A DNA stretch of 64,000 nt from Patescibacteria group bacterium (GCA_041660005.1 JBAZXG010000001.1:158565-222564), one strand, 5' to 3'; positions 24,504 through 61,090 are shown, counted from the stretch's first letter. Numbers and translations: made by a program. The notes: generated by a model not told the origin, from the letters alone.

Positions 24504-24512
24504 ATTTGATAC

Positions 24513-26089: not shown

Positions 26090-26095
26090 AACCTT

Positions 26096-28840: not shown

Positions 28841-28841
28841 T

Positions 28842-37309: not shown

Positions 37310-37663
37310 TTAGAGATAGGGTAAAAAAATCAAAACTCCGGCAACAGCGGCACCTAGGGAAGCCACTAAAACTGCGGCAGCCAGGAGATCTTTCAACATC
37401 GCTGCGTAATCATGGACCCGCGGTGAGAGTAAATCGACTAATCGTTCAAAAAAAGTGTTAAGAAGCTCAAGCACGAGTACCAGAGTAACCAAAAGAACTA
37501 CCACAATAACGCGGAGCGACGAAAGCCGAACGTACCAAGCTGCTAGAAATACGACACATCCGATAAATGTTTGCACGCGAAAATTCTGCTCGCTTTTCCA
37601 TGCTTGTCGCAGCCCTAAAAAAGCATAACGAACGCTGCGCATAAATTGTTTTACCTCTTTCAT
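37310..37663 (-). CDS. dgkA: Diacylglycerol/undecaprenol kinase DgkA family
   Basis: RYAFLGLRQAWKSEQNFRVQ motif, 3 TM helices, 117 aa. Confidence 0.75.
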   Translation of the reverse strand: MKEVKQFMRSVRYAFLGLRQAWKSEQNFRVQTFIGCVVFLAAWYVRLSSLRVIVVVLLVTLVLVLELLNTFFERLVDLLSPRVHDYAAMLKDLLAAAVLVASLGAAVAGVLIFLPYL

Positions 37664-37666: not shown

Positions 37667-38107
37667 CTACAATTCGTACCCTTGCAACGCAATAAGTCCT
37701 TTGTTGCCAAGCATGATGCTCTCCATACGCTGCATTGACCGTCGGTCCTTATCAATTTTGTGATCATAACCAAACACATGCAAGAGTGCGTGCAAGAAAA
37801 GCGCTTTAACTTCGCTCTCCACAGAAATGCCATGGCGACGGGCCTGACAAACGGCGCGCGGATGACAAATAATAATTTCACCATAATCAAAGCTCAAAAC
37901 ATCAGTAACGCTGGACTCGTTCCGGTACGTTTTGTTTAAACGTCGCATGCTCGTTTCTCCAACAAAAGCCAGTGAAAGTTCGTCAGGCATTGAACGCCGT
38001 CCCCGCATAGGTATTTTTTTCTTGGCTCGCTGTAAAACGAGAGACAATTGTTTTGTAGATACTGTTTGACGTATCGTTTTTGTAACGACCAAGGTCATGC
38101 CAATCAA
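37667..38107 (-). CDS. ybeY: rRNA maturation endoribonuclease YbeY
   Basis: HALLHVFGYDH metal-binding motif. Confidence 0.9.
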   Translation of the reverse strand: MIGMTLVVTKTIRQTVSTKQLSLVLQRAKKKIPMRGRRSMPDELSLAFVGETSMRRLNKTYRNESSVTDVLSFDYGEIIICHPRAVCQARRHGISVESEVKALFLHALLHVFGYDHKIDKDRRSMQRMESIMLGNKGLIALQGYEL

Positions 38108-39126
38108 GAAGAAAGGTGTAGGAACTGAATAAACAATTCATAGGTGGCTCGAAAATCAAGCGTCGTCTTTGCGCCAGAAGTTAAACTCACCACGTAAACA
38201 TCCTTGGACGCACCAGGAGAAGTGAAATAGAATGTTTGCCGATCGGGAGAAAAAATACCCGTATGCTCGCCAACAGTTTCAAGCACGGGCAATGTTGCCA
38301 CAGCACCAGCGATGCTCGCGCGATACCATTCGCCAATGGCAAGCTTACTAGGATTATTCTGCACGAGAACTGCAATGGACTCGTCAGCAGCGGACACGAA
38401 CTGTATCCCGTCGCGACCAATTGGTCGAGTCGTCCAACGCACTGGGTAACGAACACTATAGCGACCGTTTGGATCACTATAGGCAGTGAATAAACTACCA
38501 CCCTGCAACTTACCCGTTCCTATCGGATTATAGCCGTTTTTGAGTTCGTCTAAATCACTATAACCATCGGCATCACTATCGGGCTTAGCAGGATTTGTAC
38601 CAAACAATGTTTCCTCACTATTGGTTAGTCCATCAGTATCAGTATCAGCACTGTTAGGAAGAAGTGCGGTAACAGGCGGTGGTGTTACTGGGGTCGGAGG
38701 TTCGTTTGTTTGTGTTTCTGACCCTGGCGCCGGAGCTGTATCGGGCGAGGGCGTTGTCGGCAATGTTCCTGACGCCATATTCCCGCCCGTGGTGTTCGTC
38801 GCCGCGGCCGGGGAAGTTGCTGTTTGCTCAGACGCAGCTTGGGGGGCTGAGGCCGGCGCCTGAACACTCGTAACGAGCCAGTACGTGGTAGCAACAAGAC
38901 TGCCGATAACAATAATAGCAACGCTCCATAGTTTTAGCGGTGTCCAAAAACGATGATGTTCTTCAACTACCAAAAACTTATCCGGCATGGTTCGTATGAC
39001 CGTACCGACTATTAAGCGAGGTGCAGTATCTACGACTGCAACCGTTTCTTTTTGCTTTTGTTTAAACAAGGACAGCATACAATGAATTACTTGACCGCCT
39101 GGCAAGCGATACCTCCGGAACAGCAA
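38104..39126 (-). CDS. Membrane-anchored protein with Pro/Thr-rich linker and bacterial TSP3-type Ca-binding repeats (DTDTDGLTNSEE..DSDADGYSDLDE)
   Basis: TM LWSVAIIVIGSLVATTYWLV; DxDxDG repeats; C-terminal NGYNPIGTGKL shared with neighbour; start uncertain (39126/39078/38988). Confidence 0.6.
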   Translation of the reverse strand: MLFRRYRLPGGQVIHCMLSLFKQKQKETVAVVDTAPRLIVGTVIRTMPDKFLVVEEHHRFWTPLKLWSVAIIVIGSLVATTYWLVTSVQAPASAPQAASEQTATSPAAATNTTGGNMASGTLPTTPSPDTAPAPGSETQTNEPPTPVTPPPVTALLPNSADTDTDGLTNSEETLFGTNPAKPDSDADGYSDLDELKNGYNPIGTGKLQGGSLFTAYSDPNGRYSVRYPVRWTTRPIGRDGIQFVSAADESIAVLVQNNPSKLAIGEWYRASIAGAVATLPVLETVGEHTGIFSPDRQTFYFTSPGASKDVYVVSLTSGAKTTLDFRATYELFIQFLHLSS

Positions 39127-39813
39127 CTACTTCGGTACATTGAATAGTTTGCCAAGACCTTTAGGGTTGTAGCCATTGCGAACTTCTGCACCGTCTGAAA
39201 AACCATCGCCGTCAGTGTCAGGTTTCAACGGGTCAGTACCAAATGAACGAACTTCTTCGCCGTCAAAAAGCCCGTCGCCATCGGTGTCAGGATTCTGCGG
39301 GTCAGTACCAGCCGTAATTTCTTGCGCATTCGAAAGACCATCCTGATCACTATCGTCTTCTGGTGAAGCTGGCCCTTGACCTTGCAACTGCAAATCTGGT
39401 CGCGGTGTTACTTCGGTCGTTGGCGCGGCGTTAGTGTCTATTGGCGTAGTGGCTACCGGCTGTTTGTTGCCTGCGCTTCCTTTAAAGTACCACCAAGCAC
39501 CACCAGCACCAGCAATAACAATGAGGGCAACGAATGCTGCGGCAATAATTTTTGTAACCGTACGAGAACCGTCGTCAAGATACTCTTCAGGAATACCGCC
39601 AGAAGTATTCGGTGTTTGCGAGAGCGCCGGACGTGACGGTTGACCAGAAGGTTCTGACAACGGTACCGATTTCTTGGGAACGAAAGGCGAAGACGGAGCG
39701 CTGTCAACTGAAGCAAGCATATCTTCAGGTGCCTTCATAGGTAACGAAGGACTAGATGATTTTGCCACTGAACCAGGGTCTTTCTGCTCTCCTTTTTCTT
39801 GTTCTTCAAACAT
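39127..39813 (-). CDS. Membrane-anchored TSP3-repeat protein, paralog of 38104-39126
   Basis: DDSDQDGLSN..DTDGDGLFDGEE..DTDGDGFSDGAE repeats, TM AAFVALIVIAGAGGAWWYF, C-terminal NGYNPKGLGKL. Confidence 0.6.
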   Translation of the reverse strand: MFEEQEKGEQKDPGSVAKSSSPSLPMKAPEDMLASVDSAPSSPFVPKKSVPLSEPSGQPSRPALSQTPNTSGGIPEEYLDDGSRTVTKIIAAAFVALIVIAGAGGAWWYFKGSAGNKQPVATTPIDTNAAPTTEVTPRPDLQLQGQGPASPEDDSDQDGLSNAQEITAGTDPQNPDTDGDGLFDGEEVRSFGTDPLKPDTDGDGFSDGAEVRNGYNPKGLGKLFNVPK

Positions 39814-39855
39814 AGTATGGATAGTATAGCATGCACCGCATCCTCAACCAAACGG

Positions 39856-42800
39856 CTAAGGTGATGACGGTGGCGTTAAAATATTAACAATGGCACCACG
39901 TAACCTATTTGTTGACGCATCAACCGCAGAGGCATAGATAATATCTCTTGAGAGATAATTAAGCGTCAAACCATGGTAGTCACCCTGGACGGTAATCACT
40001 GGTATGGGTGCTGTCCAACCTGCACTTACCCAAGTCGGATCGTTTGTGCTTAACACCGATCTACGATACTTAATCGTTGTCGTTGATTGAGTAGTAGTAC
40101 GCTCTGCATAAGCAATGTAAAGATAGCCGCTTCGAGAATCTAATGCTAGCGCTACACCTTGGAAACCCCCTCCTGCAACACCAGTAATGTTGGACCCAAC
40201 CACCGTTCCGAATGTACTACTTTTTGTCCGACGCTTAAGTGCGATAAAGTCATCGTTGCTAACTACCCCCTGATCTTGTCGATAGGCAACGATACTTTCT
40301 CCTGTTGTTGGATTTGTTACGGCACTGAACCCGTCACCCGCATAGCCGGTCATAATAACGTTTTCTGCCGCAGTCAAAACCGGCTGTTCTGACCCCCAAG
40401 AGGAGGTTGCGTTCGGACCAACCCACACGCGCGCATTTAATGTTTTCGTAATGGAATTGTAATGATACAAAAGCATTTTCCCCGTGGCATCATCGGACGC
40501 AAGCGGTACCAACTGCGGTGCTTCGTTGTCGGTTTCTGGATAAGGATTATTCGTAATCCGCGAGCATGCATTTGAACTCAAAGGACACTGGTCACTGAAG
40601 CTGCTGGCGCTCGTCGAAACTTGACTACTCAGCGTGAAGTAATTCTTTCCGTCAACCGCTTTTGTCGCTGAAATCAACTGCGGCGCATCAACTATCCCCA
40701 CTGCGACACCGGTCGGTCCAAGAGTAGTTAAAGTATTGCCGACAGTATTGAGGGTCGAATACTGAATAGTGTTTGCATTATTGCCACCAGCTTGCGCACG
40801 ACTCGCCCCCAGGTGAATGAGGGAACCGGTATTAAACGGTGCAGGTGTCCACTGGTCATACCATGACACAATATGGCGACAGTTAGCCGCAATATCAACT
40901 GATGCTGCCCAAGTAAATCCAGTTCCACCACGAGTTCCCCGCACGTACTGACAGGTATTGTTTTTTCCGGTATAGAAAAGATACCCATTGGTTGCCGAGG
41001 AGAAGACGGCGCGCGGACTGGTGCCGTCATTGTAAGTAGCGGTCACATTCGTAGCGGCTATGTCCTCATTGGGCCACCCAGCAATCCAAATATCAACCGA
41101 ATTACTGACCGTTTGCCCAACACCGTTTACTGCGGTCACGGTATAAGCACCGCTACCGGGTATCTGCTTTGTTCCAGATGCGGGCCAGCGCGTACCAGTT
41201 ATTCCAGAAATAGAGCCAGGATTTATTTCGTACGAACTCGCACCAGTTCCACCGCCCCAGGTAAATGCTAATAAAGAATTGGGGGCACAAGGAGCAGAAA
41301 CATCTAAACAAGCAGCATTATATTGACTTACAGTACAAGAATAAGTTGTACCATTGATAACGGTACTTCCACCACGGTTACTCACGTTACAGTTTCCTCC
41401 TTGAGGACCAATGACAAACAATGTGACAGGCTGCGGTTTTGTGACAAATTTTGCGGTCACCGTTTGTTCACCCGTCATAGAAATAGTACAGGTAGGACTT
41501 GCGCCAGCACTCGTACATGCACCACCCCACCCCTGGAAAGTACCGCTATTCACTACAGAAGTAGCGCGAAGCGTAATGGAAGAATTTTTCAAATAATTTT
41601 CCGTAAAACCGTTTGAAACGCCATCATTTGCCGTCGGTGTTGGCCAACCCGCCGGCGCACTCTCAACAACGACATTACCATTTACAACAGGAGGATTGGG
41701 AAATGTATTATCTATCTTCTGCAATGTCAGTTGCTGCACCGCTTCAAACGTTGCCGTGACAGATAGAGAACCACCGGCAGCCGATGCTGAGAAATTACAC
41801 CGATTTCCTGTTGCCGAAGGACAATTCGTCCAGCCGGTAAATTGCGCACTGCCGTTCGGCGTAGCAAGAAGCACCACTGCATCCCCTGGATTAGGGTTGA
41901 AAGAACAGGGAGTCATGGGATCGGACGAGCTCGGGTCATTCGTACAATTGCCGGTTCCTCGCGCTGTTGCATAACCGAGGCGACCCAAACCTGATCCGCT
42001 CACAATCAAATTCACGGTTGGTCGTTTCGAAACCGTTACGCTATCGGTAGCAGTCAGTGAACCATAGCCCTGAACCGTAATGGTATAGGTTTGACTTGTA
42101 TCAGCACCCAAACTCACGACTACCGATCCTTGCGCGGATGACACATTGTAACTCGCAGGCGGAACATTGGTGAAACTACTGATGCGCACAAAGTCGGCGA
42201 CAGGTGTTACGTTCCAATTCAGCGTCTCACTGCCAGCTGGATCAATAAATACACTACTGGCTGACGGATCTGAAGCTGGCGTGAGGGTTACGCTCGGGGC
42301 TTGATGTACGGTCACCGTTACGCTCTTTTGATCAGGTGCTCCAACGCGACCCGTTGCCGTAATCTTGTAGGTCTGGCTAGTACTCGCCGTTGCCTGCTTC
42401 GTACCACTCGCTTCTGGAGTTACAACACCAACCCCCTGGTCAATCGCTACCCCGCCAGAAGTTGCGTCCGTAGTCTCCCACCGAAAAGTTATGTTGTCTC
42501 CGGCAACAACATCTGCTGAGGCGCCGAACTGATTGTTTGGCCCAGCCACTTCAAACTTTGTCACCTTCGCTGGTTTTACAATCGCTAACGTGGTTGTCGC
42601 TGAAGCAGATTCTCCTGGACCGCTGATGTTCAAGGTATAGGTAATATTTGTCGGTGCGTTATTCGACGGACAGTCATGTACGGGGGCGGCTGCGGCATTT
42701 CCAGAAATTGTACGATCAAGGGAACCGTCGTCAGCATGCACAGTAATAGTACGTGTCGTTGGAGCTGCTCCGGTTTCTGTCCATGTTAAGTCACTGCAAT

Positions 42801-45800
42801 CACGATTTTGAATGAGACTCGGTGTTGCGATAAAATTATTTATGCCGCTCGGAACATTCACGGTAAACGACACACTCTTTGTTGTTGTTCCACCAGGGCC
42901 AGTCGCGGTAAGCGTTAATGTTGTCATCCCCATCTTGGCAACAACAGTACTGCTGCCGTTTGGTGGAAGTTCTGTCATATTTACACGATCTGCAACGTTA
43001 CCGTCTGAAGTCAATAAAATATCAGTCGCATTGGTGGTGGTCCAGGAAACTGTTATTAGTGCTCCGTCGATGTAACTTGTGCCATTGAGTAAGCTCAGTT
43101 CTGCCGTTGGTTGTGCGGCAGTCAAATTAACTTGCAAAGTAACCGTTCTCGTCACTGTCACACCTTCACAACGAGTACCATTTTCGACACCAGTACAACT
43201 ATTCACCCAACCCCCAAACGTGCTGCCGACTTTCGGAAAAATCTCCACATCAACACTTGTATTTGCATCAAAAGCAAGTGAACAGGTGTCGTTAATTGAC
43301 GCACACGTTTGACGACCACTACTGGCTGTCACCACAACAGTCGCGTCCCCTGCTTCGCTACTGTTCAGCACTTGCAAGGTTGATACGTTTCGGAAACTTT
43401 GGGTGACAATCTTCGGTGTGCTCATAACCACCGAGCAGGCGCTCTGCCCGCTACAGGCGCCGCCCCAACCACCCAATGAGAAATCAGCGTTATCTAATAC
43501 TGCTTCAAGTAAAACATTTGTGTCGACGTCATAAGCAAACTCACAGGTCGCTGATACACTAGCAGGCTTCACGCAAGTATCAACGACCGATCCGCCGGAC
43601 ACAAACCGAACCTTCACCCGCCCCCCACCTGAACCTGTCAGCGTCAACTGAAGGGGCTTCAACTGAGGGTTTGGAGGAATAATGGTTCCGCCACCATCCA
43701 TAATGGGACCGGGTGGAGGAGCGGGCAAACGATCACGCACCGCAGTATCCGTCACCAGACAAAGGCGATCGCCACCAGTGACTTGGTTGAGTAGAGCCGG
43801 AAATGGAGTAAACACACTTTCCACAAAAGAGCAGAGAGCATAATCCTGACCCTGCCCTTGGCACTTCTCACCGGTCGGACACTGGCTGTCAACAATGCAT
43901 GCCTGCGCAGTTGTCGTCGAACAACGGCCATAAGCGCTGTACGTGTAGACGTGTGTTTCCGTAAGTTGAGCAGGATCAAACGACCACGGTACATCAGGTG
44001 GCGGTTCTACTTTTGTTATTTTTTCTTTAGCTGCATCCAGCGTCGCAAAGTGAGAGGCATATGTTTTAGAAACCTCATCCCAACATGTATTCGAATCATG
44101 TTTCAGCATAGCTGTTCCTAATGTGCTTTCAGTTCCACCGGCTTCACATGCAGCAAAAACACCAATAGGATCCTGCGGCAGTTGTCGACCAAGTTCGTTA
44201 CCTAATGTTGCCACCCATGACGGCCAACGGCTCGTACTGGTGCCAGTTACATAGGTACCCGCGGCTAATAATGGATAATTTGTTGTTCGATCTGCTGGCC
44301 GCTGACACGAGGACGTTACGGTCTTTGTCACGTTGCTGACATCCGTCGCGTCAACATCACCATCAGTATCGGTATCTGCACCGCGGCAGTAAGAAGGAAT
44401 ACTGCCGGGGTTTGCCCGATACCACTCTGTGAGAGAAATATCATAGCCATTAATAACACCATTACAGTTTGCGTCCCCCGGTGCACCAGGAGTAACCGCG
44501 GGACAGGAGGACCCATACTGATAGGCGCTCAAAGTCGTTGACATGTTGACGACGTCGCTCAACCGTTTCACGTCTCGAGTAACCTTGGACTTTGTGTTTG
44601 CGCAAACATATCCACTACCACAGTCGCTGTTAAAAATGCACTGCTTAACGACACCGCAGGTATTGCCACTACCGCAATCACTGTCTTGAGTACAGGCCTT
44701 GCTATTATTGTTAGAACAAAAACGAGTAACCTCTGCGCGACCAGTAGCCTGTTCCCTGCAGTTACCCACGGTCAAGTCATCAATGTTAAAGATGAGATTT
44801 TGTACCAGCTGGTTATAGACATTCTGTGTCGTGGCCTGCGCTCCCTGGTTGTAGGAGAAAATGTAAACGTTTGTGAAGAACACAGGATCGCTCACACCAT
44901 CTCCATTAACGTCAACACCAGAAGTGTTCGCTGCACCAATATAAATGGTGCGACCATCCCGAATAGCTGGGTACCCATCGATTACTAAAGATTCTGGCGC
45001 ACCTTTACTAAACGGCTGCTCAGCGTACCACTGGCTCGGCGTTAAATGCCGGTCATTTCTTACCACTCGAACACCAATAGCATCCGGATCAGGGTGCGTC
45101 GGATCAATAGTCGGGGCCTTCAAAATCCACTCCGCCAAAATGCCGAGCTGATTTGCACCGGCCGGTGCATCAATTTTTGTATTCGAGAAGTTAGGTAGTA
45201 GCTCCGGAACACATGAATTACCAGCGCCGCACTGTTTATCGTTAGCACATGATTTATTCTTATCGTTCGAGCAAACACTTCGGGAGGTGTCCTGACAGTA
45301 AGTCGTATAGAAATTCGTCGGGCTGTCCCCCGCCGGAGGCGGACCATCTTGCAACGGACCATTGTCCCACGGTTGGCGACACAGCATGAAAGTAACCGGC
45401 ACTCTGTTACTGCCCATGGTGTCACTATCGCTCCCTAGACTCGCCGATACATTGACGAGCGCAAAACGCGTACGATTGTCTGATGGTTTATTGGCAAATG
45501 TTGTTTCAAGTTCAGGAGTGGTTGTGTTGGCTAAGGAGAGTAATGGCAACGGATCTTCCTTTGACCAAACATAGTTTGCGCTCAATGCCTGGCCAATAGC
45601 ATCCACTGCTGTTGCCTGATAAACGTGTTGGTTACCGGTTCCTGGTGCAGAGTTCTGGTCTTCAGGCACTTCCCCCGTTGTTGTCTGCCGACAGCCGAGC
45701 TTGACGCCACCAGTGTCAGAACTGCAATTACAATGGTCGCCGTAGCAGGCGAACAGATCGTACGGCTGGATAAGCGTTCGCGGTTGGCTTATCGACATTT

Positions 45801-48800: not shown

Positions 48801-51800
48801 CTTGGGGAATCGTTACCGCGCCGACAAACTGCTGCCAACTTTGACTAAGATTTATATTCTGACCCGTAGCAAAAGTAAAGAAGGCGAGTTTGTTCGAGAT
48901 ATCATTAGCATCAGCGACATAGACACGCACAGGAGCAATACCGGCGGCAGCAGTCTTCTTGCTGAAAAGCGATACAGTAAAAGATTGACCCGACGCAGAC
49001 TGCGGGAAACTCACTAGCTGAACTAACCCACTCGCAAAAGAGCAAGCGACGCTGCTACAATCCGGCTGTTCGTAAAAATGAGGACCCTCAGCAGCAGATC
49101 CAGTTTTCAGAAAATCTTGAGCAGCATAAGTAATACCAGCAGACGTTCCTCCCCATCCTGATATCTTGCCATCAGCAGTAACAGCATTTTCAAAACTTCC
49201 GTTTATAATGGCTTCGTTATTACATTGCTGCTCCTCAACGACGCGCGGCACGGGGTTACCGGTACTAAACTGCCAACGGTAGGACGCCAATATTAATGGC
49301 AACGGCACAGTGCACGGCTTACTAACCGTCGAACAGCTGCCATCACCGCAACATTGGAAACCGGCAGCGCAAATATTCGGCGCCTGCTGGCAGGCAGTTA
49401 CAGGGTCAGAGGTAAGATAAAATCCGTCATTCCCTTTATCTACATTCATGGAAAAATTGGCCCTATTTTTCGTGATATCAATTTCAACAGAATCCGGTGC
49501 TTCGATAGCAGCAGCGGGATCACTCCTGAATGATTTTACCTTCATCGTCTCAAACTCAACCCTACCAACTACTTTCTCCACATCGGTAACGAGCGGATGG
49601 CCCCCGTACAGCACAACACGAACCTCGCCGTTGATACGTTGAACCGCAAGCCCGGGAACATTTCGGTACGCGGCAATGTCGGGATCGTTTATCGGTACGC
49701 CGTTCTGATACACGGGGAACCACTCACCATCAGCAACAATATTCGTGCCTGACCCAAGGTACACCTTTTTTTGCAAATCTCCAGCGCCAGCGTTTTGAAT
49801 AGAGGTAAAGACAACACGCGCACGAGTCGTATCGGTGCATGCTGCACCTGCGGGAACTAAGCAGGAACCAACGGTAAATTGGAGTGGGTTACTGACCGTA
49901 CCACCATCTCTCACCACACGAACGGGTCCTGAAATTGCAGCACCTGGGACAACTGCTTTAATGGTCTGATTTGCCCAATTTTTTATCTCGGCTGCAATAC
50001 CGGCAAGCGTTAAATTGGTCTGTGCTGAGTTGCCATCATAATATCGAACCGAGCCAGATTGTTGTGTCGCACCAAAGCTGTCTCCAAAATGCTGCACCAA
50101 CAGCGATGGAGGTCCATTGTCTGGTGCCAGACAGTAGAGACCGGGCGTTGGCGTATTAGTATTTACGGTAAAGACCGTATCGCGGTTACTTTCCTTGTCG
50201 TCACGACGCACCACATACACATACTGATCAGCAACAGTAACGCCCGCCGGAACTTTCAACACAATCTGTTTATTCTTCCAGTAAGAACTTGGTCCGCACT
50301 CTGCTGGAAAATCTGCCCATGATACCTCAACCGCAGTACCACCTGCTTTTGGTATAAAATACGCCTGACCGACATCCGTACCAAAGTTAGAACCAGTAAT
50401 CGTAACAACTTGCCCAACTGGTCCGGAGGACGGAGTGACAGAATCAATGACCGGACCTGGCTGGCATGATTTTACCGTAAAGTTATATGGGTTTGACTGA
50501 ACATCTGCTGCGGTTTTAATCGTAGCCCCAACAACGCCCGTATGAACGTTGGCAACCGACGAAACTACTTCGGTCGGTGTCCACACATCAACGACGCCGG
50601 GCAGTGAACCAAAAATCGCACTCCCTTTGGCGGAGCCAAAATTTTTGCCAAGGAACGAAACATTGGGAATGGCGGGATCGTTCACGCAGGCGGCAGACGG
50701 CGTTATGGCGCAAAGTCCTGGTCGAATAGTGGCATTGACATCAAAGTCTGGTAACACGGGTCCGGGTGCTTCATTTGTGCGATCGATGAGGTTAAGCGCC
50801 GTACTCACTTCAACTGATCCATCAACTGCGGCAGCGGGAACTTCCACAATGATTTGATTATCTTGCCAAGTTGCTGCCGTGGAACATACCGACGGCAGCG
50901 CAGCTACGGTATCGTCACTGTTCGCCGGGTCGTCTTTGGCATTACCATCGCCGTCTTTGTCCGTACCAAGGAAAGTGACAACGCCGGGTGTTGTTCCAAA
51001 ACCACTGCCAACAATGGCCACGTAGTTACCTGGCGCGCCGTCGTTGGGTAGTACGGCGGTGATAACAGGTGACTCTGCACAGATACAGGAATCAGGATCA
51101 CAGGCGCTCATCACCGCGCATCCAAACGGATCCGGCTGGCAGGACGGCGCAGTGGTGTCACTATCGCATGATGAACCAGGACAGGCACCGCAAGAACCAC
51201 CACAATCTAAGCCCGTTTCGTCGCCGCTCACTTTGCCATCAAAACAAAAGCCAGGACGAATCTTTACGGTTTTTTCAACCAACGGCGGTTCGTTCTCGTG
51301 GCTTGCAAAGTCAAAGGCCTTTACCTGAAGCGTTCGTGTAGATCCAACCGTAAAACCATTCGTACTCCAAGCAACACCTCCAGTAAATGGAGTATACGGC
51401 GCCGCAGTGGGAGCGGCGTCTCCTATATATGGGGTGGCGGCTTCTTTATCATAAAATTCTAAACGGGAAATGCCGTAGTCGTCCCGACCAACTGCACTCA
51501 CGTTCACACTCGAGTCAACGGGCACTTGACTGCCAACTGGCGCTTTAAAAGCAACCGTTGGCGACTTCGTGTCAACATAGTCCCCTGTCTCAAAGGTTGC
51601 CTTACATGGGTTACTCGGATAGGTACAGTTGAGCGCTCGACCACTAACGCTGCGAATGACTCCGGAAGTCAACTCAACAGTGTAGTTCGTGTTTGATGCT
51701 AAGCAAGACAAAGACTCATTAGGGACGTCACACTTTGCAAGCGGCGTGAAACTGATGCGACGATTACCGGATGCTGCTTGGCTGGTGTCTAATGTCCCGG

Positions 51801-52509
51801 CAATAATTGCTGAAGAATCTGCTGTTGGGTAGATGCGTACTGAATCGCTCGTGGTGCCGTAGGTGAGTGTTGCAACGTCTACCCCTTCATTAAATTGTAC
51901 CTGCACGACACTATTTCGCGGTGCGTTCGTCGTGCTATTCGGCGGCGAGTAACGGCTAACGACAAAAGCATCTGGTGGTTGTGGTCTACAGCCAGGGAAT
52001 AATGTACAACCACCATAATTATAAATACCGTCTCCGTTGGTATCGCTACACGTTCGCTCACCCGCACATGTACCAATAGAACAAGAAATGGGCGGATCCC
52101 CAGCACTACACGCTTGCCCAGGAGGAGGATTAATAAGGGTTCGCAATAGATAAGAAGCAATTGCAAAAGCAGAGAGAATGATAACGAGCCCAATACCTGC
52201 ATTAATGAGAACGCTGCGTGCTTGACGAATCCGCTCTTCGTTTCCTGCCGCAGTCATCCAAAGATACCCACCATACATAATGAGCCCGACGGCGATGAGG
52301 CCGAGGAACCCAAGGAAGAAACGAATGATACGAGCGATCAAAATTTTTAAGTCTCCCCCACCTCCACCGAGACCGATATTGTTACCAATAGTGTTAATGC
52401 CGGTATCCAAATTCTGCGCAAACACCGGCAGTGCAGCGAGCACAACAAAAGCAACAACCGCCAAGGCCAGCCAGCCAGCGTGTACTTTCCTTTGTCGTAC
52501 TTTCAACAT
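39856..52509 (-). CDS. Giant 4217-aa multidomain cell-surface protein with N-terminal pilin-like 2-helix anchor
   Basis: 12,654-nt ORF without stop; signal peptide ..PVFAQ; IPT/TIG-like, Big/SbsA-Ig-like, CBM4_9-like (NGSFENAV..GW), InlB B-repeat-like, DxDxDG, BNR-like (STNDPTW) segments. Confidence 0.85.
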   Translation of the reverse strand: MLKVRQRKVHAGWLALAVVAFVVLAALPVFAQNLDTGINTIGNNIGLGGGGGDLKILIARIIRFFLGFLGLIAVGLIMYGGYLWMTAAGNEERIRQARSVLINAGIGLVIILSAFAIASYLLRTLINPPPGQACSAGDPPISCSIGTCAGERTCSDTNGDGIYNYGGCTLFPGCRPQPPDAFVVSRYSPPNSTTNAPRNSVVQVQFNEGVDVATLTYGTTSDSVRIYPTADSSAIIAGTLDTSQAASGNRRISFTPLAKCDVPNESLSCLASNTNYTVELTSGVIRSVSGRALNCTYPSNPCKATFETGDYVDTKSPTVAFKAPVGSQVPVDSSVNVSAVGRDDYGISRLEFYDKEAATPYIGDAAPTAAPYTPFTGGVAWSTNGFTVGSTRTLQVKAFDFASHENEPPLVEKTVKIRPGFCFDGKVSGDETGLDCGGSCGACPGSSCDSDTTAPSCQPDPFGCAVMSACDPDSCICAESPVITAVLPNDGAPGNYVAIVGSGFGTTPGVVTFLGTDKDGDGNAKDDPANSDDTVAALPSVCSTAATWQDNQIIVEVPAAAVDGSVEVSTALNLIDRTNEAPGPVLPDFDVNATIRPGLCAITPSAACVNDPAIPNVSFLGKNFGSAKGSAIFGSLPGVVDVWTPTEVVSSVANVHTGVVGATIKTAADVQSNPYNFTVKSCQPGPVIDSVTPSSGPVGQVVTITGSNFGTDVGQAYFIPKAGGTAVEVSWADFPAECGPSSYWKNKQIVLKVPAGVTVADQYVYVVRRDDKESNRDTVFTVNTNTPTPGLYCLAPDNGPPSLLVQHFGDSFGATQQSGSVRYYDGNSAQTNLTLAGIAAEIKNWANQTIKAVVPGAAISGPVRVVRDGGTVSNPLQFTVGSCLVPAGAACTDTTRARVVFTSIQNAGAGDLQKKVYLGSGTNIVADGEWFPVYQNGVPINDPDIAAYRNVPGLAVQRINGEVRVVLYGGHPLVTDVEKVVGRVEFETMKVKSFRSDPAAAIEAPDSVEIDITKNRANFSMNVDKGNDGFYLTSDPVTACQQAPNICAAGFQCCGDGSCSTVSKPCTVPLPLILASYRWQFSTGNPVPRVVEEQQCNNEAIINGSFENAVTADGKISGWGGTSAGITYAAQDFLKTGSAAEGPHFYEQPDCSSVACSFASGLVQLVSFPQSASGQSFTVSLFSKKTAAAGIAPVRVYVADANDISNKLAFFTFATGQNINLSQSWQQFVGAVTIPQAYTAKEFYVVIELPKAGFDVDAVNLSWTSSSTQSPSPWKGSVDACTNAQVSVRFTTPIDTVATPKTALVVADCDSDPDCKQPKPGVSPAALQFFTYTDNLNIENGGFTADVGGFTLNHWYEARVTKAVKSDKGVSPDKDYIWRFQAKSDTCAVASLSCQPSSHKLTAKDEQESLSAGLQAANCNILSCPSGSVAWSSSSALVASVDPGLTGCHNTATAVSEGTTKVKAASPADPAARVGECRVNVIFEAPKVIEPFPSCDAACLNAAIGAVFSRPLTASTFTYTAAPVWTDSVQLYKCANADCIISDKTTTERIGITEPIYIVIPAKEETPKRYQVSFTAANGYLQKETYYRVILTKDIRSEEGKSLETNYKEKDVDGNTIDAYSWVFKTKSTICAVDRVINIPDKATLRTIGATEDIVAQPFGAPDSCNATGERLAAISYDYGWNSTDADVATITNNNVLKQIDSSGHVVVGSYVDPRQVATAVGKAPSCSVAPTYQCATDVTASVGLCTIDSDGNGAADTCDNQPKKCTTTSDCAVIGKSTLTLQCGFIAPQACISATQNVIGNSSFEITKAGSTDPLTGWGDDTDSTKMYASTVLTTGNAADGRQYYRQPDCHTTTCPFDEGLVTFIDMPYAVANQAYDFSFAVRRPGSAERVRVYLAKSDNILDKLAFVDFIGDDPRVVTTTNKWSAHSGTVTFGSAVTGNKFFLVLELPTGVEVDSVSLIPHVCAKQLKRACSTSSQCNVDASGLSLNVCGSGNPVGTCNAQLKCSNDSHVSCDNGDGTGNDLFCSFAVNKGGCCGIRPWVTSITGAESPADGTICRNAAFTVMFSQPMDRTSVEQNTSLEWLDNVGELNADGLPDCNLEESLKVAEATPMSQFFGFVRRLFLNEAGAAAGSGWCKVLGTKVLASTVFPDGSSPVTKAIISVSSLLDKKLKYRVVVHGENATDPTGGARSTAGIALDGDKNQEFPDPSASTPPGVGNHICKVDNIQVNIAPVLSTEMSISQPRTLIQPYDLFACYGDHCNCSSDTGGVKLGCRQTTTGEVPEDQNSAPGTGNQHVYQATAVDAIGQALSANYVWSKEDPLPLLSLANTTTPELETTFANKPSDNRTRFALVNVSASLGSDSDTMGSNRVPVTFMLCRQPWDNGPLQDGPPPAGDSPTNFYTTYCQDTSRSVCSNDKNKSCANDKQCGAGNSCVPELLPNFSNTKIDAPAGANQLGILAEWILKAPTIDPTHPDPDAIGVRVVRNDRHLTPSQWYAEQPFSKGAPESLVIDGYPAIRDGRTIYIGAANTSGVDVNGDGVSDPVFFTNVYIFSYNQGAQATTQNVYNQLVQNLIFNIDDLTVGNCREQATGRAEVTRFCSNNNSKACTQDSDCGSGNTCGVVKQCIFNSDCGSGYVCANTKSKVTRDVKRLSDVVNMSTTLSAYQYGSSCPAVTPGAPGDANCNGVINGYDISLTEWYRANPGSIPSYCRGADTDTDGDVDATDVSNVTKTVTSSCQRPADRTTNYPLLAAGTYVTGTSTSRWPSWVATLGNELGRQLPQDPIGVFAACEAGGTESTLGTAMLKHDSNTCWDEVSKTYASHFATLDAAKEKITKVEPPPDVPWSFDPAQLTETHVYTYSAYGRCSTTTAQACIVDSQCPTGEKCQGQGQDYALCSFVESVFTPFPALLNQVTGGDRLCLVTDTAVRDRLPAPPPGPIMDGGGTIIPPNPQLKPLQLTLTGSGGGRVKVRFVSGGSVVDTCVKPASVSATCEFAYDVDTNVLLEAVLDNADFSLGGWGGACSGQSACSVVMSTPKIVTQSFRNVSTLQVLNSSEAGDATVVVTASSGRQTCASINDTCSLAFDANTSVDVEIFPKVGSTFGGWVNSCTGVENGTRCEGVTVTRTVTLQVNLTAAQPTAELSLLNGTSYIDGALITVSWTTTNATDILLTSDGNVADRVNMTELPPNGSSTVVAKMGMTTLTLTATGPGGTTTKSVSFTVNVPSGINNFIATPSLIQNRDCSDLTWTETGAAPTTRTITVHADDGSLDRTISGNAAAAPVHDCPSNNAPTNITYTLNISGPGESASATTTLAIVKPAKVTKFEVAGPNNQFGASADVVAGDNITFRWETTDATSGGVAIDQGVGVVTPEASGTKQATASTSQTYKITATGRVGAPDQKSVTVTVHQAPSVTLTPASDPSASSVFIDPAGSETLNWNVTPVADFVRISSFTNVPPASYNVSSAQGSVVVSLGADTSQTYTITVQGYGSLTATDSVTVSKRPTVNLIVSGSGLGRLGYATARGTGNCTNDPSSSDPMTPCSFNPNPGDAVVLLATPNGSAQFTGWTNCPSATGNRCNFSASAAGGSLSVTATFEAVQQLTLQKIDNTFPNPPVVNGNVVVESAPAGWPTPTANDGVSNGFTENYLKNSSITLRATSVVNSGTFQGWGGACTSAGASPTCTISMTGEQTVTAKFVTKPQPVTLFVIGPQGGNCNVSNRGGSTVINGTTYSCTVSQYNAACLDVSAPCAPNSLLAFTWGGGTGASSYEINPGSISGITGTRWPASGTKQIPGSGAYTVTAVNGVGQTVSNSVDIWIAGWPNEDIAATNVTATYNDGTSPRAVFSSATNGYLFYTGKNNTCQYVRGTRGGTGFTWAASVDIAANCRHIVSWYDQWTPAPFNTGSLIHLGASRAQAGGNNANTIQYSTLNTVGNTLTTLGPTGVAVGIVDAPQLISATKAVDGKNYFTLSSQVSTSASSFSDQCPLSSNACSRITNNPYPETDNEAPQLVPLASDDATGKMLLYHYNSITKTLNARVWVGPNATSSWGSEQPVLTAAENVIMTGYAGDGFSAVTNPTTGESIVAYRQDQGVVSNDDFIALKRRTKSSTFGTVVGSNITGVAGGGFQGVALALDSRSGYLYIAYAERTTTQSTTTIKYRRSVLSTNDPTWVSAGWTAPIPVITVQGDYHGLTLNYLSRDIIYASAVDASTNRLRGAIVNILTPPSSP

Positions 52510-52514
52510 AAGTA

Positions 52515-54704
52515 TTACGGCGCGTTAGCTGTTACGTCACCCGGCACATTGCTCTGCCCATTGACCGGACCATTACTGGGGTAGAAACAATTTTGGTAGG
52601 AATCATGAATCACTGAACCGTAACGCGGCTCATACTTTTTATGCGACTGCGACCCAGATAGGCTCGGGTCTTCAAGCCCACTGTGATTTAACGAAGCGTC
52701 TTCTCTGCCGCAAAAGTCGAGTGTACCACCGTTACAATCTTTATTCAGATTGCAAGCCATTAAACCTCCTACTTCGGCACTGTGGGTGAGACTGCATACC
52801 TGCTCGCATTTATTCGCAGGGTCGTTATTCAATGCCAAACACTCTGCTGTTGAAGTACAAGGAACAACTTTAGTCGGATCACTCAGACTCGGTAGGGTGC
52901 AAATATGCACGGGCTGTTGGTTTGTCGTAAATGCGTAAGGGTAGGGCACGTATGGATCACCAACTTTGTCCTCTTGATAAAACGCAATTGGTGCGTGTGG
53001 TTCGGGTCGAGCAGGATTCGTTTTGTCGAGATAGGTACGAATGATACTGAGCCGTCTGTTAAAGCGAGCAACAATCGGCGTCTTGGGATTAACCCCTTCC
53101 TTGTTAACTTCCGGAGTCACGTTAATAATTTCTGGGCCACTCGAGACAATGGTGTCTGTTGTTTTGAACGACCAGGAAAAACTGTCTTTCGGCGGACCGT
53201 CCGCAGTGCCGTCACCACTTGGCATACGTAATTGCTGATGACCTTCACTATCGAGCACGGGATTACCGTTACTATCCTTTTCAATGTTCTTGCTGCCATC
53301 GAGTGAGTTACTTGCCATATCCACCACACCGTCAAATATTCCATTGCCCGGCGACGGAGTACAGGCGCGCGACGGGTTGTTCGACGGTTCCGGTCCGAGA
53401 TTACATCCAGGGTCACTCCAAAGCATGGCTGCTTTCACATCCGCACTCACCGTCACACTTGCTGGCAGGCAATAAATCGTCTGGTTGCAGGAATTGGTGC
53501 CACAGGGATCAGACGAAACAAATTCCACCGTACGATACCCATTACCAATGCTGAATGTTCCGTTGACCGGCGTATTACCATTGTCGGCGTTCGCTACAAT
53601 TAAATTATTGAACCCATCGGCAGTACTACCGCTCGCGCTAATCGGGTTGACCGCTTCATTAAAGGTAACCTGTACAACGGTATTACGTGCCAGTTCGTCA
53701 TACTCCCAAGGAAGTACGTCAATGATTTTTGGCGGGGTCGTGTCGATGATGGTGGAAACTTCGAAGGACCATGCGTACTTACTATCCTGTACGAGGAAAC
53801 CAGAATCTCCGTTTTTCTTTGTAAGCGTAGTATGCACCGTCGCTCGATGCTTAGTATTGACATCAGGCAGCCCAAGAAGCGCTGCGCCGTGCAAAATAAA
53901 GACAAATACCTTCTCGTCGTTGGTGTAAACGTCAAAGCTTGAAAACTGCTTATACCCCGTTCCGTCACCTGGATCCCACGCTAGATCAAAAACATTTTCA
54001 TTCATGGTGCCACACCACAAAACGGAACAAGTCACCGTGCCAAAGTCTTCACCTTTACTCACCGCATTACTGAGAAACGACTTCGGGAGACTAGCAATAT
54101 CCGCCGCGGTCTTCGGGTCTTTATGAATAACCAATATGGGCTCCCTGAAAGTGATTGCCATACTGGTATTTCTCGGAACATTTTTTTGATCACGCCCGGG
54201 GTAGTGATCTTCAATGATACCGTTCCCTAGTGCAAAACAGTTACTGCAGGGTGGCGGTGAACCCGACCCATTATTGGTGTTGCCGCCCGTACCAACCAAC
54301 CAATTGAGCAAAAACGAAACAATGCTAAAGGAAATTAAAATGATAACGAGACCAATAGCTCCATTACGGAGCACTTTCTGGGCAAGTTCAATGCGTTCAC
54401 TGTTGCCGGCAGATGTCATCCAGAGGTAACCGCCGTAGAGGACGACACCGATAGCAAGGAGACCAAGGAAACCAAGCAGCGCGCGAATAATGCGCGCTAT
54501 TAAAATTTTTAAATCCCCCGAACCGGCACTGAGGCCGGAATTGTTTGAAAAATTAGTAAGGCCGGTATCAAGCCCTTGCGCCAAGGCAACGACCGGAAGA
54601 AAAGCAAAAATGACGGCAACCCCGAGAGCGAGTGAATGGCGCAGCGTCAACCAGGGCAGAATAGTTTTGTTCCGTCGTAGAAAAAAGGCCTCGGATATTG
54701 CCAT
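52515..54704 (-). CDS. 726-aa surface protein (start chosen at MAISEAFF; the ORF opens at 54779 as 754 aa) sharing the pilin-like N-terminal module of the giant protein
   Basis: GDLKILIARIIRALLGFLGLLAIGVVLYGGYLWMTSAGNSERI..IGLVIILISFSIVSFLL nearly identical to giant protein residues 50-122; Ig-like FNEAV segments; stop 5 nt before giant gene ATG. Confidence 0.7.
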   Translation of the reverse strand: MAISEAFFLRRNKTILPWLTLRHSLALGVAVIFAFLPVVALAQGLDTGLTNFSNNSGLSAGSGDLKILIARIIRALLGFLGLLAIGVVLYGGYLWMTSAGNSERIELAQKVLRNGAIGLVIILISFSIVSFLLNWLVGTGGNTNNGSGSPPPCSNCFALGNGIIEDHYPGRDQKNVPRNTSMAITFREPILVIHKDPKTAADIASLPKSFLSNAVSKGEDFGTVTCSVLWCGTMNENVFDLAWDPGDGTGYKQFSSFDVYTNDEKVFVFILHGAALLGLPDVNTKHRATVHTTLTKKNGDSGFLVQDSKYAWSFEVSTIIDTTPPKIIDVLPWEYDELARNTVVQVTFNEAVNPISASGSTADGFNNLIVANADNGNTPVNGTFSIGNGYRTVEFVSSDPCGTNSCNQTIYCLPASVTVSADVKAAMLWSDPGCNLGPEPSNNPSRACTPSPGNGIFDGVVDMASNSLDGSKNIEKDSNGNPVLDSEGHQQLRMPSGDGTADGPPKDSFSWSFKTTDTIVSSGPEIINVTPEVNKEGVNPKTPIVARFNRRLSIIRTYLDKTNPARPEPHAPIAFYQEDKVGDPYVPYPYAFTTNQQPVHICTLPSLSDPTKVVPCTSTAECLALNNDPANKCEQVCSLTHSAEVGGLMACNLNKDCNGGTLDFCGREDASLNHSGLEDPSLSGSQSHKKYEPRYGSVIHDSYQNCFYPSNGPVNGQSNVPGDVTANAP

Positions 54705-54714
54705 GCGTTTTTGT

Positions 54715-55188
54715 TTACTTTGAGGAATCTTTTTGTTTCGCCAGCACTTCACGAACAACCGCCGCAACTTCACTGCCATCTATCGCTCCTTTCAGATCTC
54801 GCATCACCGCTTTCATAGCTTGACCAAAATCTGTGATCCCTTCCTTATGTAACGTTTCAACGACGAGCGCAACACGACGTTTCGTTTCTTCTGGATCAAG
54901 TGCTTGCGGTAAATATGCAGAGAGCACAGCGATTTCTTTTTTCGCTGCATCAATTAAATCTTGTCGTGCAGCTTTGATAAAGTCTTCCAGCGCATCTTTC
55001 TGGCGTTTCACTTCTTGACGAATGACCGTTGCAACAGCCGCGTCATCTAATTCTTTGACCGCACTGGTGCGCGCCGCGATCACAGCATTCTGCAAGGCCG
55101 CACGAAGCGTGCGTAAAATTGATACGCGTTCCGCCTCATGCGCCTTCATTGCTGCTATAAAGTCCTTCTCAATGCGTTCAAGTAACAT
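54715..55188 (-). CDS. yqeY: GatB/YqeY domain protein
   Basis: MLLERIEKDFIAAMKAHEAERVSILRTLRAAL typical YqeY N-terminus; follows rpsU. Confidence 0.85.
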   Translation of the reverse strand: MLLERIEKDFIAAMKAHEAERVSILRTLRAALQNAVIAARTSAVKELDDAAVATVIRQEVKRQKDALEDFIKAARQDLIDAAKKEIAVLSAYLPQALDPEETKRRVALVVETLHKEGITDFGQAMKAVMRDLKGAIDGSEVAAVVREVLAKQKDSSK

Positions 55189-55221
55189 ACGGCTCAGTTA
55201 ACGAAGATGTTAACAATTACA

Positions 55222-55482
55222 TTAACGAGAACGACCGCCGCCTTTGGCTGACCGCTTCTCGTCTTCTTCAGTAAGACGACCAACTTTTCGTAAGTATTCC
55301 ATCTGCTCCCGCTTACCGGCACGAACCAATGCATTCTTGCGTGCTTCGGTACGGCTTTTTTCACGCGTCAAAAAACGAACCTTCCGAGCCTGTCGCATAC
55401 GGCCGCTCCGTTGTAGCTGCCGAACGAACCGACGAAAGAAGGCTTCAAAACTTTCACCCTTTTTCCTCTTTATTTCGACCAC
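55222..55482 (-). CDS. rpsU: 30S ribosomal protein S21
   Basis: MVEIKRKKGESFEAFFRRFVRQLQRSGRMRQARKVRF matches S21 consensus. Confidence 0.85.
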   Translation of the reverse strand: MVEIKRKKGESFEAFFRRFVRQLQRSGRMRQARKVRFLTREKSRTEARKNALVRAGKREQMEYLRKVGRLTEEDEKRSAKGGGRSR

Positions 55483-55733
55483 GTACTCACCTCACTTTCT
55501 TATTGCAGCCGCTCAAGCGGTCGTGCATAAATAATGGTCGATCGTTTTTTCTTCGCTCACTTGAAAAATGCCGACTACTCTACATCTGAACATTTTTCGA
55601 AACTCAAGTAAATTGCGAAGACAAAAAACGATTCGTACGTTTTATTCTAACACATAGAGAGGCGCTAAGTCAAAAGTATAATAACCTTAGGATTCTTGAA
55701 TGAGACGCTCGGCTACGGTCCCCTTGCATGACG

Positions 55734-57903: not shown

Positions 57904-58848
57904 TCAAGAACCTTGTAGTGCAGCCGCTCCAAAAATAAACATGGCTGCCACTAAAATAACTGTAAGAAACGCCATAACAACAGAACCAACCACGAGGTAC
58001 TTTCGTAACTGCACATTTGATTCCGGCGCTACAGCAACCGGCAATGTCTTAAGACGCAGGTAAAGTACATAAAAATAACCGAGGAGGAGTGGTGTCAGCA
58101 ATAACTCAAGCGCGAAGTTAATGGCTTGAGCAATTCCGGGCTGATTAAAAACTCCGGTTAAAATTGCTCCGGGAATGGAGATAACAAAACTCAATAGAGC
58201 TAAAACAACGATGCGCCCGGCAACCGCCCACCAACGTCCCCGCACGTACTCACGGCTTGCTAAAAGTGCGGTAAAGCCATGCCGGTCTTCGCTGACCACA
58301 ACGTAAAGAGCCAATATAAACCAGACGGAAAGAATAATGCCTGGTACAACCAAAAGCAATACTCCCCCGAGCATAAGTAGCCCTGACAATATGGACACCC
58401 AGAGATATGGAAGGACAAACCGTCGAGACTCTCGATAAGCGTCGATGATACCACCACCGGTTGTACTGTCTGCCCCTTTCGCGAGCGTTACAACAACAGT
58501 GAGCGACGCCCAAAGCTGGGTAATACCAAGCGCAATAAAGGCAGCGACTTCAATAAGAATACTCAGGGCTAAACCAATGTAGTGCACTGTTGGCGTAGAA
58601 CTCACGGAAAGCCAAGAAGTGAACGACAACATACCAAGGAGCACAAAAATGCCAACAATGACGGCAAAAATTGCGGCCAATAACAGTGCTATAAGCCGTC
58701 CGAACTGCTTGCGATACAACGCTGCTGCTTCACGCAAAAGCTGCATGGATCCGGGAATAGATGCGTTCTCTTTTAAACCAAGCATGAAAATTAAAATAAA
58801 AGGTGAATACCGATACCCTATTCTAGCATAAATGAGGTAAGGAATCAC
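57904..58848 (-). CDS. Hypothetical polytopic membrane protein
   Basis: Multiple TM helices; start uncertain (MQLLRE at 58746 plausible). Confidence 0.5.
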   Translation of the reverse strand: MIPYLIYARIGYRYSPFILIFMLGLKENASIPGSMQLLREAAALYRKQFGRLIALLLAAIFAVIVGIFVLLGMLSFTSWLSVSSTPTVHYIGLALSILIEVAAFIALGITQLWASLTVVVTLAKGADSTTGGGIIDAYRESRRFVLPYLWVSILSGLLMLGGVLLLVVPGIILSVWFILALYVVVSEDRHGFTALLASREYVRGRWWAVAGRIVVLALLSFVISIPGAILTGVFNQPGIAQAINFALELLLTPLLLGYFYVLYLRLKTLPVAVAPESNVQLRKYLVVGSVVMAFLTVILVAAMFIFGAAALQGS

Positions 58849-61013: not shown

Positions 61014-61090
61014 TGGTGGGCGCGGGAGGATTCGAACCTCCGACCTTTCGAATGTGAATCGAACGCTCTAACCAACTGAGCTACGCGCCC
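61014..61090 (-). tRNA. tRNA-Val (anticodon CAC) with encoded CCA
   Basis: Cloverleaf read manually: GGGCGCG acceptor, GCTC/GAGC D-stem, TTCGA/TCGAA anticodon stem, loop TTCACAT, GGAGG-TTCGAAT-CCTCC T-arm, discriminator A, CCA. Confidence 0.85.

Follow-up and report, generated by a model that had tools for sequence, protein, structure and literature searches.

Giant membrane proteins of 1392-4163 aa in the Candidate Phyla Radiation (CPR) epibiont Vampirococcus lugosii have been connected with a fibrous surface (PMC8080830), surface proteins resembling adhesins proved essential in a cultivated Saccharibacterium (PMC11665869), and VirB2-like pilins have been catalogued across the Patescibacteria (PMC12102498). 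The present analysis concerns a block of four genes for predicted surface proteins, one of them 4217 aa long, that lies between yqeY and ybeY in a metagenome-assembled genome (MAG) of a Patescibacteria bacterium near Candidatus Uhrbacteria (GCA_041660005.1, JBAZXG010000001.1:158565-222564; "the window" means this whole 64-kb stretch, and positions refer to it unless another locus is named). The block is interpreted here as an old, vertically inherited surface module, in which the giant protein would be a co-expressed, membrane-rooted fibre or adhesin with a propeller at its tip, an interpretation that is favored with moderate confidence.

Two of the described systems share part of this design. 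The V. lugosii giants fall into the same size class, are likewise predicted to be membrane-bound with adhesion-type domains, and were proposed to serve a fibrous surface or host attachment; they belong, however, to the Absconditabacteria, their domains are WD40, PKD, integrin, DUF11 and others, and neither a VirB2-type anchor nor a conserved operon position was reported for them (PMC8080830). The Patescibacteria VirB2-like pilins (PF18895) have the same N-terminal design, i.e., a signal peptide and two helices with a short charged loop, but they are small and often encoded in arrays of 2-11 genes near virB4, whereas here the module makes up the first ~130 residues of 729- and 4217-aa proteins; no discussion of such fusions was found in the survey, which was aimed at small pilins (PMC12102498). 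An earlier note on this DNA had called giant surface proteins a hallmark of host-attached, reduced-genome bacteria, which agrees with the present case: the organism is a reduced-genome Patescibacterium, and such proteins have already been reported for the group (PMC8080830).

More distant parallels come from other phyla. SiiE and the RTX adhesins of the LapA/MpIBP type, giant repetitive adhesins of Gram-negative bacteria, likewise combine many Ig-like domains and calcium sites with a ligand-binding module held far from the cell, but they are exported C-terminus-first by a type I secretion system (T1SS) and carry an N-terminal retention module, while the giant described here has a membrane hairpin and divergent repeats, no RTX repeats, and no T1SS genes near its block. 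In the modular type IV pilins (PilB and PilC of Streptococcus sanguinis), a short pilin module carries a large functional ectodomain; these belong to an unrelated superfamily with a class III signal peptide and the type IV pilus machinery, and the comparison is one of analogy only. What goes beyond the searched literature is the occurrence of a VirB2-type module at the N-terminus of predicted surface proteins of 600-4700 aa, the predicted lectin-like propeller tip together with its replacement by a propeller of another type, and the unchanging place that the module occupies within the rpsU-yqeY/ybeY operon in several candidate phyla.

The gene block and the giant reading frame

The block and its immediate neighbours are all encoded on the minus strand, and are given here in the direction of transcription.

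55222-55482, minus strand: rpsU, putative divergent ribosomal protein bS21, 86 aa (GTG start, GAGGTG Shine-Dalgarno sequence; orthologues match PF01165)
54715-55188, minus strand: yqeY, GatB/YqeY-domain protein, 157 aa (Pfam PF09424, E=3e-37)
52515-54704, minus strand: predicted surface protein, 729 aa from the NCBI start at 54704 (longest open reading frame, ORF, 754 aa from 54779), with a signal/transmembrane (TM) segment, a VirB2-like two-helix hairpin, Big_5 Ig-like domains and a Cys-rich C-terminus
39856-52509, minus strand: predicted giant surface protein, 4217 aa (ORF of 12,654 nt)
39127-39813, minus strand: TSP3 protein, 228 aa (Pfam PF18884, E=3e-24; TM helix 82-110)
38104-39126, minus strand: TSP3 protein, 340 aa (Pfam PF18884, E=4e-5, 23.7 bits, just under the cut-off of 25; TM helix ~60-88)
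37667-38107, minus strand: ybeY, rRNA maturation endoribonuclease (Pfam/NCBIfam)
37310-37663, minus strand: dgkA, diacylglycerol kinase (Pfam DAGK), followed by ftsA, ftsZ and nrdR

This order from rpsU to nrdR had been listed in the earlier note, and every ORF was found where it had been placed; the gene identities were upheld, with Pfam and NCBIfam confirming YqeY, YbeY, DAGK, FtsA, FtsZ, NrdR and TSP3_bac. The 86-aa ORF matches S21 beneath the family threshold (Pfam E=0.0017), and 21 of its 24 matches among PDB sequences are bS21 with full-length alignment (best E=0.003), evidence that is weak but consistent for a divergent bS21. The note's figure of 0-5 nt for the gaps holds between the 729-aa gene and the giant (5 nt) and between the two TSP3 genes (0 nt), but not between the giant and the 228-aa gene (42 nt), nor between yqeY and the gene after it, which are 10 nt apart with the NCBI start and overlap by 65 nt if the longest ORF is taken. 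At the far end, the 340-aa TSP3 gene overlaps ybeY by 4 nt, and ybeY and dgkA are separated by 3 nt.

The giant frame contains a single stop in 4218 codons, compared with 112-310 stops in each of the other five frames, and the probability of such an open frame arising by chance is ~1e-92. The ORF holds no ambiguous bases and no near-identical tandem repeats that might mask an assembly collapse, the similarity between its domains being weak. A second assembly (Logan SRR18595301) is 100% identical across the 16.3 kb that it covers, and the protein is collinear from N- to C-terminus with full-length orthologues of 3894, 3930 and 3911 aa. By these sequence comparisons the giant ORF is a real gene, and the uninterrupted 12,654 nt that had been claimed for it can be retained.

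The two closest orthologues (P0180 and P0181) lack ~380 residues that correspond to residues ~885-1265 of the window's giant (48715-49857). Residues 1103-1261 resemble residues 1802-1960 (31-39% identity), which suggests that the greater length of the window's protein stems from an internal domain duplication.

Architecture of the giant protein and its partners

Along the giant, from the N-terminus to the C-terminus, the following parts were recognized.

52417-52509, minus strand: signal-peptide-like hydrophobic segment, residues 1-31, with a putative cleavage site VFA/QN at its end (sequence reading)
52147-52341, minus strand: VirB2/TrbC-like pilin hairpin (T4SS_pilin, PF18895), residues 57-121, two hydrophobic helices with a short charged loop
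41059-52146, minus strand: predicted extracellular stalk of divergent beta-sandwich domains, residues ~122-3817 (Pfam)
44320-44481, minus strand: dockerin-type calcium-binding module within the stalk, residues 2677-2730 (Pfam PF00404, 29.4 bits against a cut-off of 22.9)
39865-41058, minus strand: C-terminal seven-bladed beta-propeller, residues ~3818-4215, divergent BNR-related family with a predicted lectin-like fold

The anchor is shared by two proteins. The first ~300 aa of the 729-aa protein are paralogous to the giant, and both paralogues begin with a hydrophobic signal segment and an AxA-like site, followed by two hydrophobic helices that are joined via a short charged loop. PF18895 is matched by the giant with 31.6 bits when the whole protein is searched and with 36.4 bits for its N-terminal piece (gathering cut-off 26.6), besides a weak TrbC/VirB2 match (E=0.002); the hairpin of the 729/754-aa paralogue is ~60% identical to that of the giant and scores just beneath the same cut-off (23.8 bits). 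A custom hidden Markov model of 89 family members matched only these two ORFs within the window (E=8e-39 and 3e-36). The hydropathy profile of the giant shows segments at 7-36, 54-86 and 97-127, i.e., the signal and two TM helices, and no further TM segment or C-terminal anchor in the remaining ~4090 residues. With this topology, the part of the protein beyond the second helix would lie outside the membrane irrespective of signal-peptide cleavage, and exposure at the surface would be expected. The hairpin was modelled with AlphaFold2 (108 residues, 84-sequence alignment) as helices 27-58 and 64-99, with a predicted local distance difference test score (pLDDT) above 90. Because helical hairpins are not discriminating, the Foldseek search of this model against the PDB gave no significant match: the best hits were generic helical hairpins (E=0.5), and an archaeal conjugation pilus appeared at rank 40 (E=5).

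The stalk that follows consists of divergent domains, not of tandem copies. Pfam recognizes Big_5 at 181-294, Big_7 at 317-373, three TIG domains within ~450-880, a second Big_5 at ~1270-1381, Big_2 at ~1393-1466, and two Flg_new_2 domains (InlB-B-repeat-like) within ~3500-3700; residues ~1669-2500 gave no Pfam match. Roughly 30 or more divergent Ig-like or beta-sandwich domains may be accommodated in the stalk, and an extended molecule would then measure on the order of 100 nm. The dockerin-type module is also present in the orthologues, and cysteine accounts for 3% of the giant's residues. No HemolysinCabind/RTX match was obtained with Pfam in the giant, and no ABC, MFP or TolC genes adjoin the block; the ABC genes of the window (12053-15562) lie 24 kb off and are of the MacB/FtsX and ABC-F types. 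The whole giant had no match in a PDB sequence search.

The ~390-aa tip domain was found in the orthologous giants (41-57% identity) and, by an exhaustive HMMER search, in ~150 other proteins, often near their N-terminus. It was only through this exhaustive search with the tip that the giant orthologues were recovered, a word-indexed search with N- and C-terminal queries having returned proteins of up to ~1550 aa. The window's own tip has no Pfam match, and the profile of the tip family found none among PDB sequences; 12 of the 40 aligned family members match BNR_2, and the consensus shows Asp-boxes (SxDxGxTW). AlphaFold2 predicts a seven-bladed beta-propeller (pLDDT 86, predicted template-modelling score 0.90), whose best Foldseek matches are the Photorhabdus lectins PHL and PLL (E~1e-10), with BP39L of Burkholderia, CV39L of Chromobacterium, CylK, a sialidase-like glycoside hydrolase, polysaccharide lyases and the integrin alpha head as other near folds. 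The sequence identity shared with these folds is 7-13%, and the tip family itself is BNR-related without a solved member. In the 40-sequence alignment, the invariant and near-invariant columns hold aromatic residues, Asp, His and Cys, and none of the columns with full or at least 90% conservation is an arginine; the arginine triad of sialidases is thus not conserved, and a catalytic sialidase is held unlikely for the tip.

Conservation falls towards this end of the molecule. The anchor and middle of the giant are 40-63% identical to those of the orthologues, and the distal third 29-40%, a pattern that fits a stalk with a recognition end. In one lineage (related loci L013 and L023), the end of the giant is replaced by PKD domains and a seven-repeat RCC1 propeller.

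At L023 4927-8112 (also L013 16-2652), in the lineage of Uhrbacteria RIFCSPLOWO2_01_FULL_47_25, the C-terminal ~1060 residues comprise two PKD domains and seven RCC1 repeats, i.e., a seven-bladed propeller of a different type from the BNR-like one of the window. A separate 1228-aa RCC1 protein is encoded ~9 kb upstream in L006.

The two smaller partners are built alike: each is predicted to leave an N-terminal tail in the cytoplasm, to cross the membrane with one TM helix, and to expose calcium-binding TSP3 (thrombospondin type 3) repeats outside. In the 340-aa protein, the repeats are preceded by a Pro/Thr-rich linker and followed by a C-terminal beta domain of ~140 aa; this protein is probably ~324 aa long, starting at M17.

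Position and age of the block

The window's proteins were mapped by tblastn onto 49 related loci. The usual order in other Patescibacteria (including Portnoybacteria and a contig labelled Saccharibacteria) is lepB-hisS-rpsU-yqeY-ybeY-ftsA-ftsZ, and yqeY and ybeY are directly adjacent in 14 of the 17 other Patescibacteria loci that hold both, with 0.36-1.9 kb between them in the other three. Neither phoH nor dgkA was found at the yqeY/ybeY junction in any of the 17, and era likewise in none of the Patescibacteria comparators; room for phoH is lacking in 14 of the 17, and no major ORF of the window carries a PhoH or Era domain. Since yqeY and ybeY are adjacent in most of the comparators and phoH is at the junction in none, the block constitutes extra DNA there and not a replacement of phoH.

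The Firmicutes-type gene order, as in Bacillus subtilis, is rpsU-yqeY ... phoH-ybeY-dgkA-era. The adjacency of rpsU and yqeY and that of ybeY and dgkA are common to this neighbourhood and the block locus, whereas the Patescibacteria string has neither phoH nor era. The earlier note had taken rpsU-yqeY-phoH-ybeY-dgkA-era, given there as contiguous in many bacteria, as its reference, and had concluded that the surface genes occupy the position of phoH. That four genes interrupt a conserved housekeeping string is borne out, but the reference order was the wrong one, and the displacement of phoH had to be abandoned.

Nor is the embedding peculiar to this genome, as the note had implied. The full order lepB-hisS-rpsU-yqeY, a 669-723-aa pilin/Ig protein, a 3894-3930-aa giant, two or three TSP3 genes, and ybeY-dgkA-ftsA-ftsZ-nrdR is present in three relatives of the Uhrbacteria type (L044, L045 and L046). 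The window's YqeY is 100% identical to a protein on a 245-kb contig of a "Patescibacteria group bacterium" MAG, the nearest named relative is Candidatus Uhrbacteria CG10 (YqeY 72% identical), and the yqeY side of the block is kept in relatives whose YqeY is 72%, 57-60% and down to 48% identical; the ybeY side is kept in Uhrbacteria RIFCSPLOWO2_01_FULL_47_25 and in matching metagenome contigs. Further away (YqeY identity 36-40%), yqeY is followed by a 606-972-aa pilin/Big_5 protein and then a giant in Magasanikbacteria (giant of 4744 aa), in a second Uhrbacteria genome (3279 aa, then TSP3) and in Komeilibacteria (at least 1494 aa, up to the contig end). All five pilin/Big_5 proteins of known context lie directly after yqeY, namely the window's P0043, P0044 of Uhrbacteria CG10 (locus L002) and three more. 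The giant ORF is intact and the relatives carry the same genes at the same locus, none with phoH there, so that neither of the observations which the earlier note had named as refuting was made. Judged from this synteny, the insertion is ancient and inherited across the clade.

Other envelope genes occur at the same place. Two further Patescibacteria lineages, both unrelated, L017 (8138-9890) and L031 (1308-3200), carry at the yqeY/ybeY junction a homologous single-pass membrane protein of 409-525 aa, accompanied by a small membrane protein of 67 aa in L017 and by one of 205 aa in L031. The junction seems to be tolerant of envelope genes and a recurrent landing site for them. The gene dgkA stands behind ybeY only where the block is present as well; in the other Patescibacteria (loci L014-L041) ybeY runs straight into ftsA. 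Possibly dgkA came in together with the block, or near that time.

Transcription

The genes of the block share one strand, and in four genomes no gap between them exceeds 62 nt. No convincing internal terminators were found within the block, and an Rfam scan gave no riboswitch or leader near it. The best sigma-70-like promoter match of the region, a lead only, is the following.

55644-55673, minus strand: candidate operon promoter TTGACT-18-TAGAAT, with TG, in the 308-nt spacer between hisS and rpsU

Given this packing between the rpsU-yqeY and ybeY-dgkA pairs, with the best promoter-like site ahead of rpsU, the block is probably transcribed together with both pairs, i.e., constitutively. Its expression may also be coupled to growth rate, as the earlier note had suggested, which is a reasonable hypothesis.

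Proposed function

According to the interpretation put forward here, an ancestor of the Uhrbacteria/Magasanikbacteria/Komeilibacteria-type clade would have acquired the block at the yqeY/ybeY junction, where it would have stayed fixed since. The Sec-type signal peptide and the hairpin would fix the 729-aa and 4217-aa proteins in the cytoplasmic membrane, leaving the remainder of each outside the cell. The giant would thus present a long Ig-like stalk, including the dockerin-type calcium site, that ends in the lectin-like propeller, and the propeller would most likely bind a glycan or protein on a partner cell or substrate. The TSP3 proteins probably have a role at the foot of the structure or help to organize it in a calcium-dependent way, and the calcium sites of the dockerin module and the TSP3 partners may stiffen or organize the fibre.

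Several points weigh against this interpretation. Beta-propellers are generic interaction scaffolds, and "lectin" is applied to the tip by structural analogy. All members come from uncultivated organisms. Promoter- and terminator-like sites in the region are no commoner than in shuffled sequence, and transcription through 18 kb before ybeY-dgkA is reached may call for internal promoters. It is equally conceivable that the fixed position is neutral, the block being trapped in a very stable string of flanking genes. Finally, the strong, clade-wide conservation seen in the locus and in most of the protein would be expected of a core envelope component no less than of a host-specific adhesin.

Alternative explanations

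The last of these points leads to the strongest competitor, in which a constitutive fibrous coat or S-layer-like scaffold for shape, division or cell-cell spacing would be made up of the giant together with its partners. It would explain the link with ybeY-dgkA-ftsA-ftsZ. In its favour, the locus keeps one place among housekeeping and division genes throughout the clade; the giant is under purifying selection along its entire length, and fibrous material fills the inter-cell space of a CPR epibiont with giant membrane proteins (PMC8080830). The distal module, however, is swapped between lineages (BNR-like or RCC1 propeller) and the distal third evolves fastest, both typical of a ligand-recognition end, and no SLH-like, other S-layer-type or self-assembly domain is among the giant's Pfam matches. 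We regard a structural coat as unlikely, though it deserves to be kept in mind more than any of the other alternatives.

In a more radical proposal, the two paralogues would be modular VirB2 pilins: a type IV secretion system (T4SS) would extract the 729- and 4217-aa proteins from the membrane and build them into a VirB2-type pilus or onto its tip, where they would serve as the missing T4SS adhesin. The hairpin does belong to PF18895, a family of small VirB2-like pilins widespread in the Patescibacteria and often encoded beside virB4, and the survey of these pilins reports no PrgB-like adhesin in the phylum (PMC12102498). Two paralogous hairpins are encoded side by side, and the C-terminus of the hairpin faces outward, which makes an extension sterically conceivable. 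On the other hand, neither the window nor the flanking regions in the relatives contain virB4 or any other T4SS gene, and the T4SS loci of ABY1 are reported beside comF, recG and radA, not here (PMC12102498). An ectodomain of 4100 residues per subunit is moreover incompatible with helical packing, leaving at most a minor or tip subunit, and the fold search described above gave the hairpin no significant match to solved conjugative pilins. The proposal is thus doubtful, somewhat more so than the structural coat. Equally doubtful is its fullest form, an undescribed class of modular VirB2 pilins in which a probably essential apparatus of the ABY1 type roots or polymerises a ~4000-residue fibre with exchangeable, host-recognising tips, hard-wired into a ribosome-maturation and division operon; were it true, every new cell would be made attachment-competent.

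A tip that acts as a sialidase or glycan lyase, with the giant breaking down polymers of the host cell wall, a role suggested for giant genes in predatory Omnitrophota, is improbable. Homologues of the tip do match BNR_2, its structural neighbours include sialidase-like glycoside hydrolases and polysaccharide lyases, and giant genes elsewhere have been tied to cell-wall degradation (bioRxiv 10.1101/2023.11.21.568195). Against this stand the arginine triad, which is not conserved, the lack of any catalytic Pfam domain in the 4217 aa, and the lack of a match among PDB sequences.

That the block is a recently acquired genomic island or mobile adhesin locus, which displaced phoH from a Firmicutes-type operon, is very improbable. 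The block is indeed extra DNA at the yqeY/ybeY junction relative to most Patescibacteria, and L017 and L031 carry different membrane-protein genes at that very junction. The same block, however, occupies the same place in relatives down to 36-48% YqeY identity, and none of the comparators has phoH there. The G+C content, overall and at third codon positions, and the codon usage of the four genes match those of the neighbouring housekeeping genes; the window contains no integrase or transposase (flanking repeats were not searched for), and its only tRNA gene in Rfam and tRNA scans, tRNA-Val at 61014-61090, lies 5.5 kb beyond the block. Recent horizontal transfer was rejected in view of composition, codon usage and synteny.

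An assembly or sequencing error, or a chance open frame, is negligibly probable for the giant in view of the frame statistics, the three collinear full-length orthologues, the identical second assembly and the absence of collapsed repeats.

Neighbouring loci

In one relative lineage, a diversity-generating retroelement (DGR) lies between hisS and rpsU (L008 6000-10000, which equals L045 521-2988; also in L009 and L010). It comprises bAvd, a reverse transcriptase and a 112-nt repeat pair, with the template repeat at 8050-8161 and the variable repeat at 7599-7710, at the 3' end of a 202-aa ORF; the two repeats are 86% identical, and all mismatches but one fall on an A in the template. Targeting of the giant by this element was rejected, as the variable region lies in the separate 202-aa ORF and the window contains no reverse transcriptase.

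The remainder of the window encodes an ECF (extracytoplasmic function) sigma factor, a SUF Fe-S system, superoxide dismutase, ComEC, a release factor, HtrA, hisS and lepB. The region 17043-29579 holds iron-sulfur and oxidative-stress genes at a density that is high for a reduced Patescibacteria genome: three genes for class-V aminotransferase or cysteine desulfurase-like proteins (17043-18254, 22164-23363 and 27539-28840), sufB, sufC, sufD and a NifU-like fusion protein within 24479-29579, and an Fe/Mn superoxide dismutase (21439-22062). At 1604-4397, a DUF5666 protein is encoded on the strand opposite to an ECF-type sigma gene, which is followed by a gene for a DUF5667 protein, possibly an anti-sigma factor or membrane partner; the sigma-DUF5667 pair also occurs near the locus in the relative L008. 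A 314-aa ORF just upstream of lepB (57904-58848) has no significant family match, and its position is kept (288-325 aa) in L002, L005 and L011.

Significance

This locus overturns nothing, since the phylum was already known to have giant surface proteins as well as VirB2-like domains. The yqeY/ybeY position can serve as an easy synteny marker in the search for orthologous giant genes, which metagenome assemblies often break up or miss. That the VirB2-like module, previously treated only as a small pilin of the Patescibacteria T4SS, is also the N-terminal part of very large predicted surface proteins bears on the role of the many genes annotated as "pilin". The ways in which the ultra-small Patescibacteria recognise and attach to their partners are still poorly understood, and the Uhrbacteria and Magasanikbacteria have no cultivated representatives; the locus provides a clade-conserved candidate for this function, whose modular tip could be expressed and tested on glycan or cell-envelope arrays without the organism itself.

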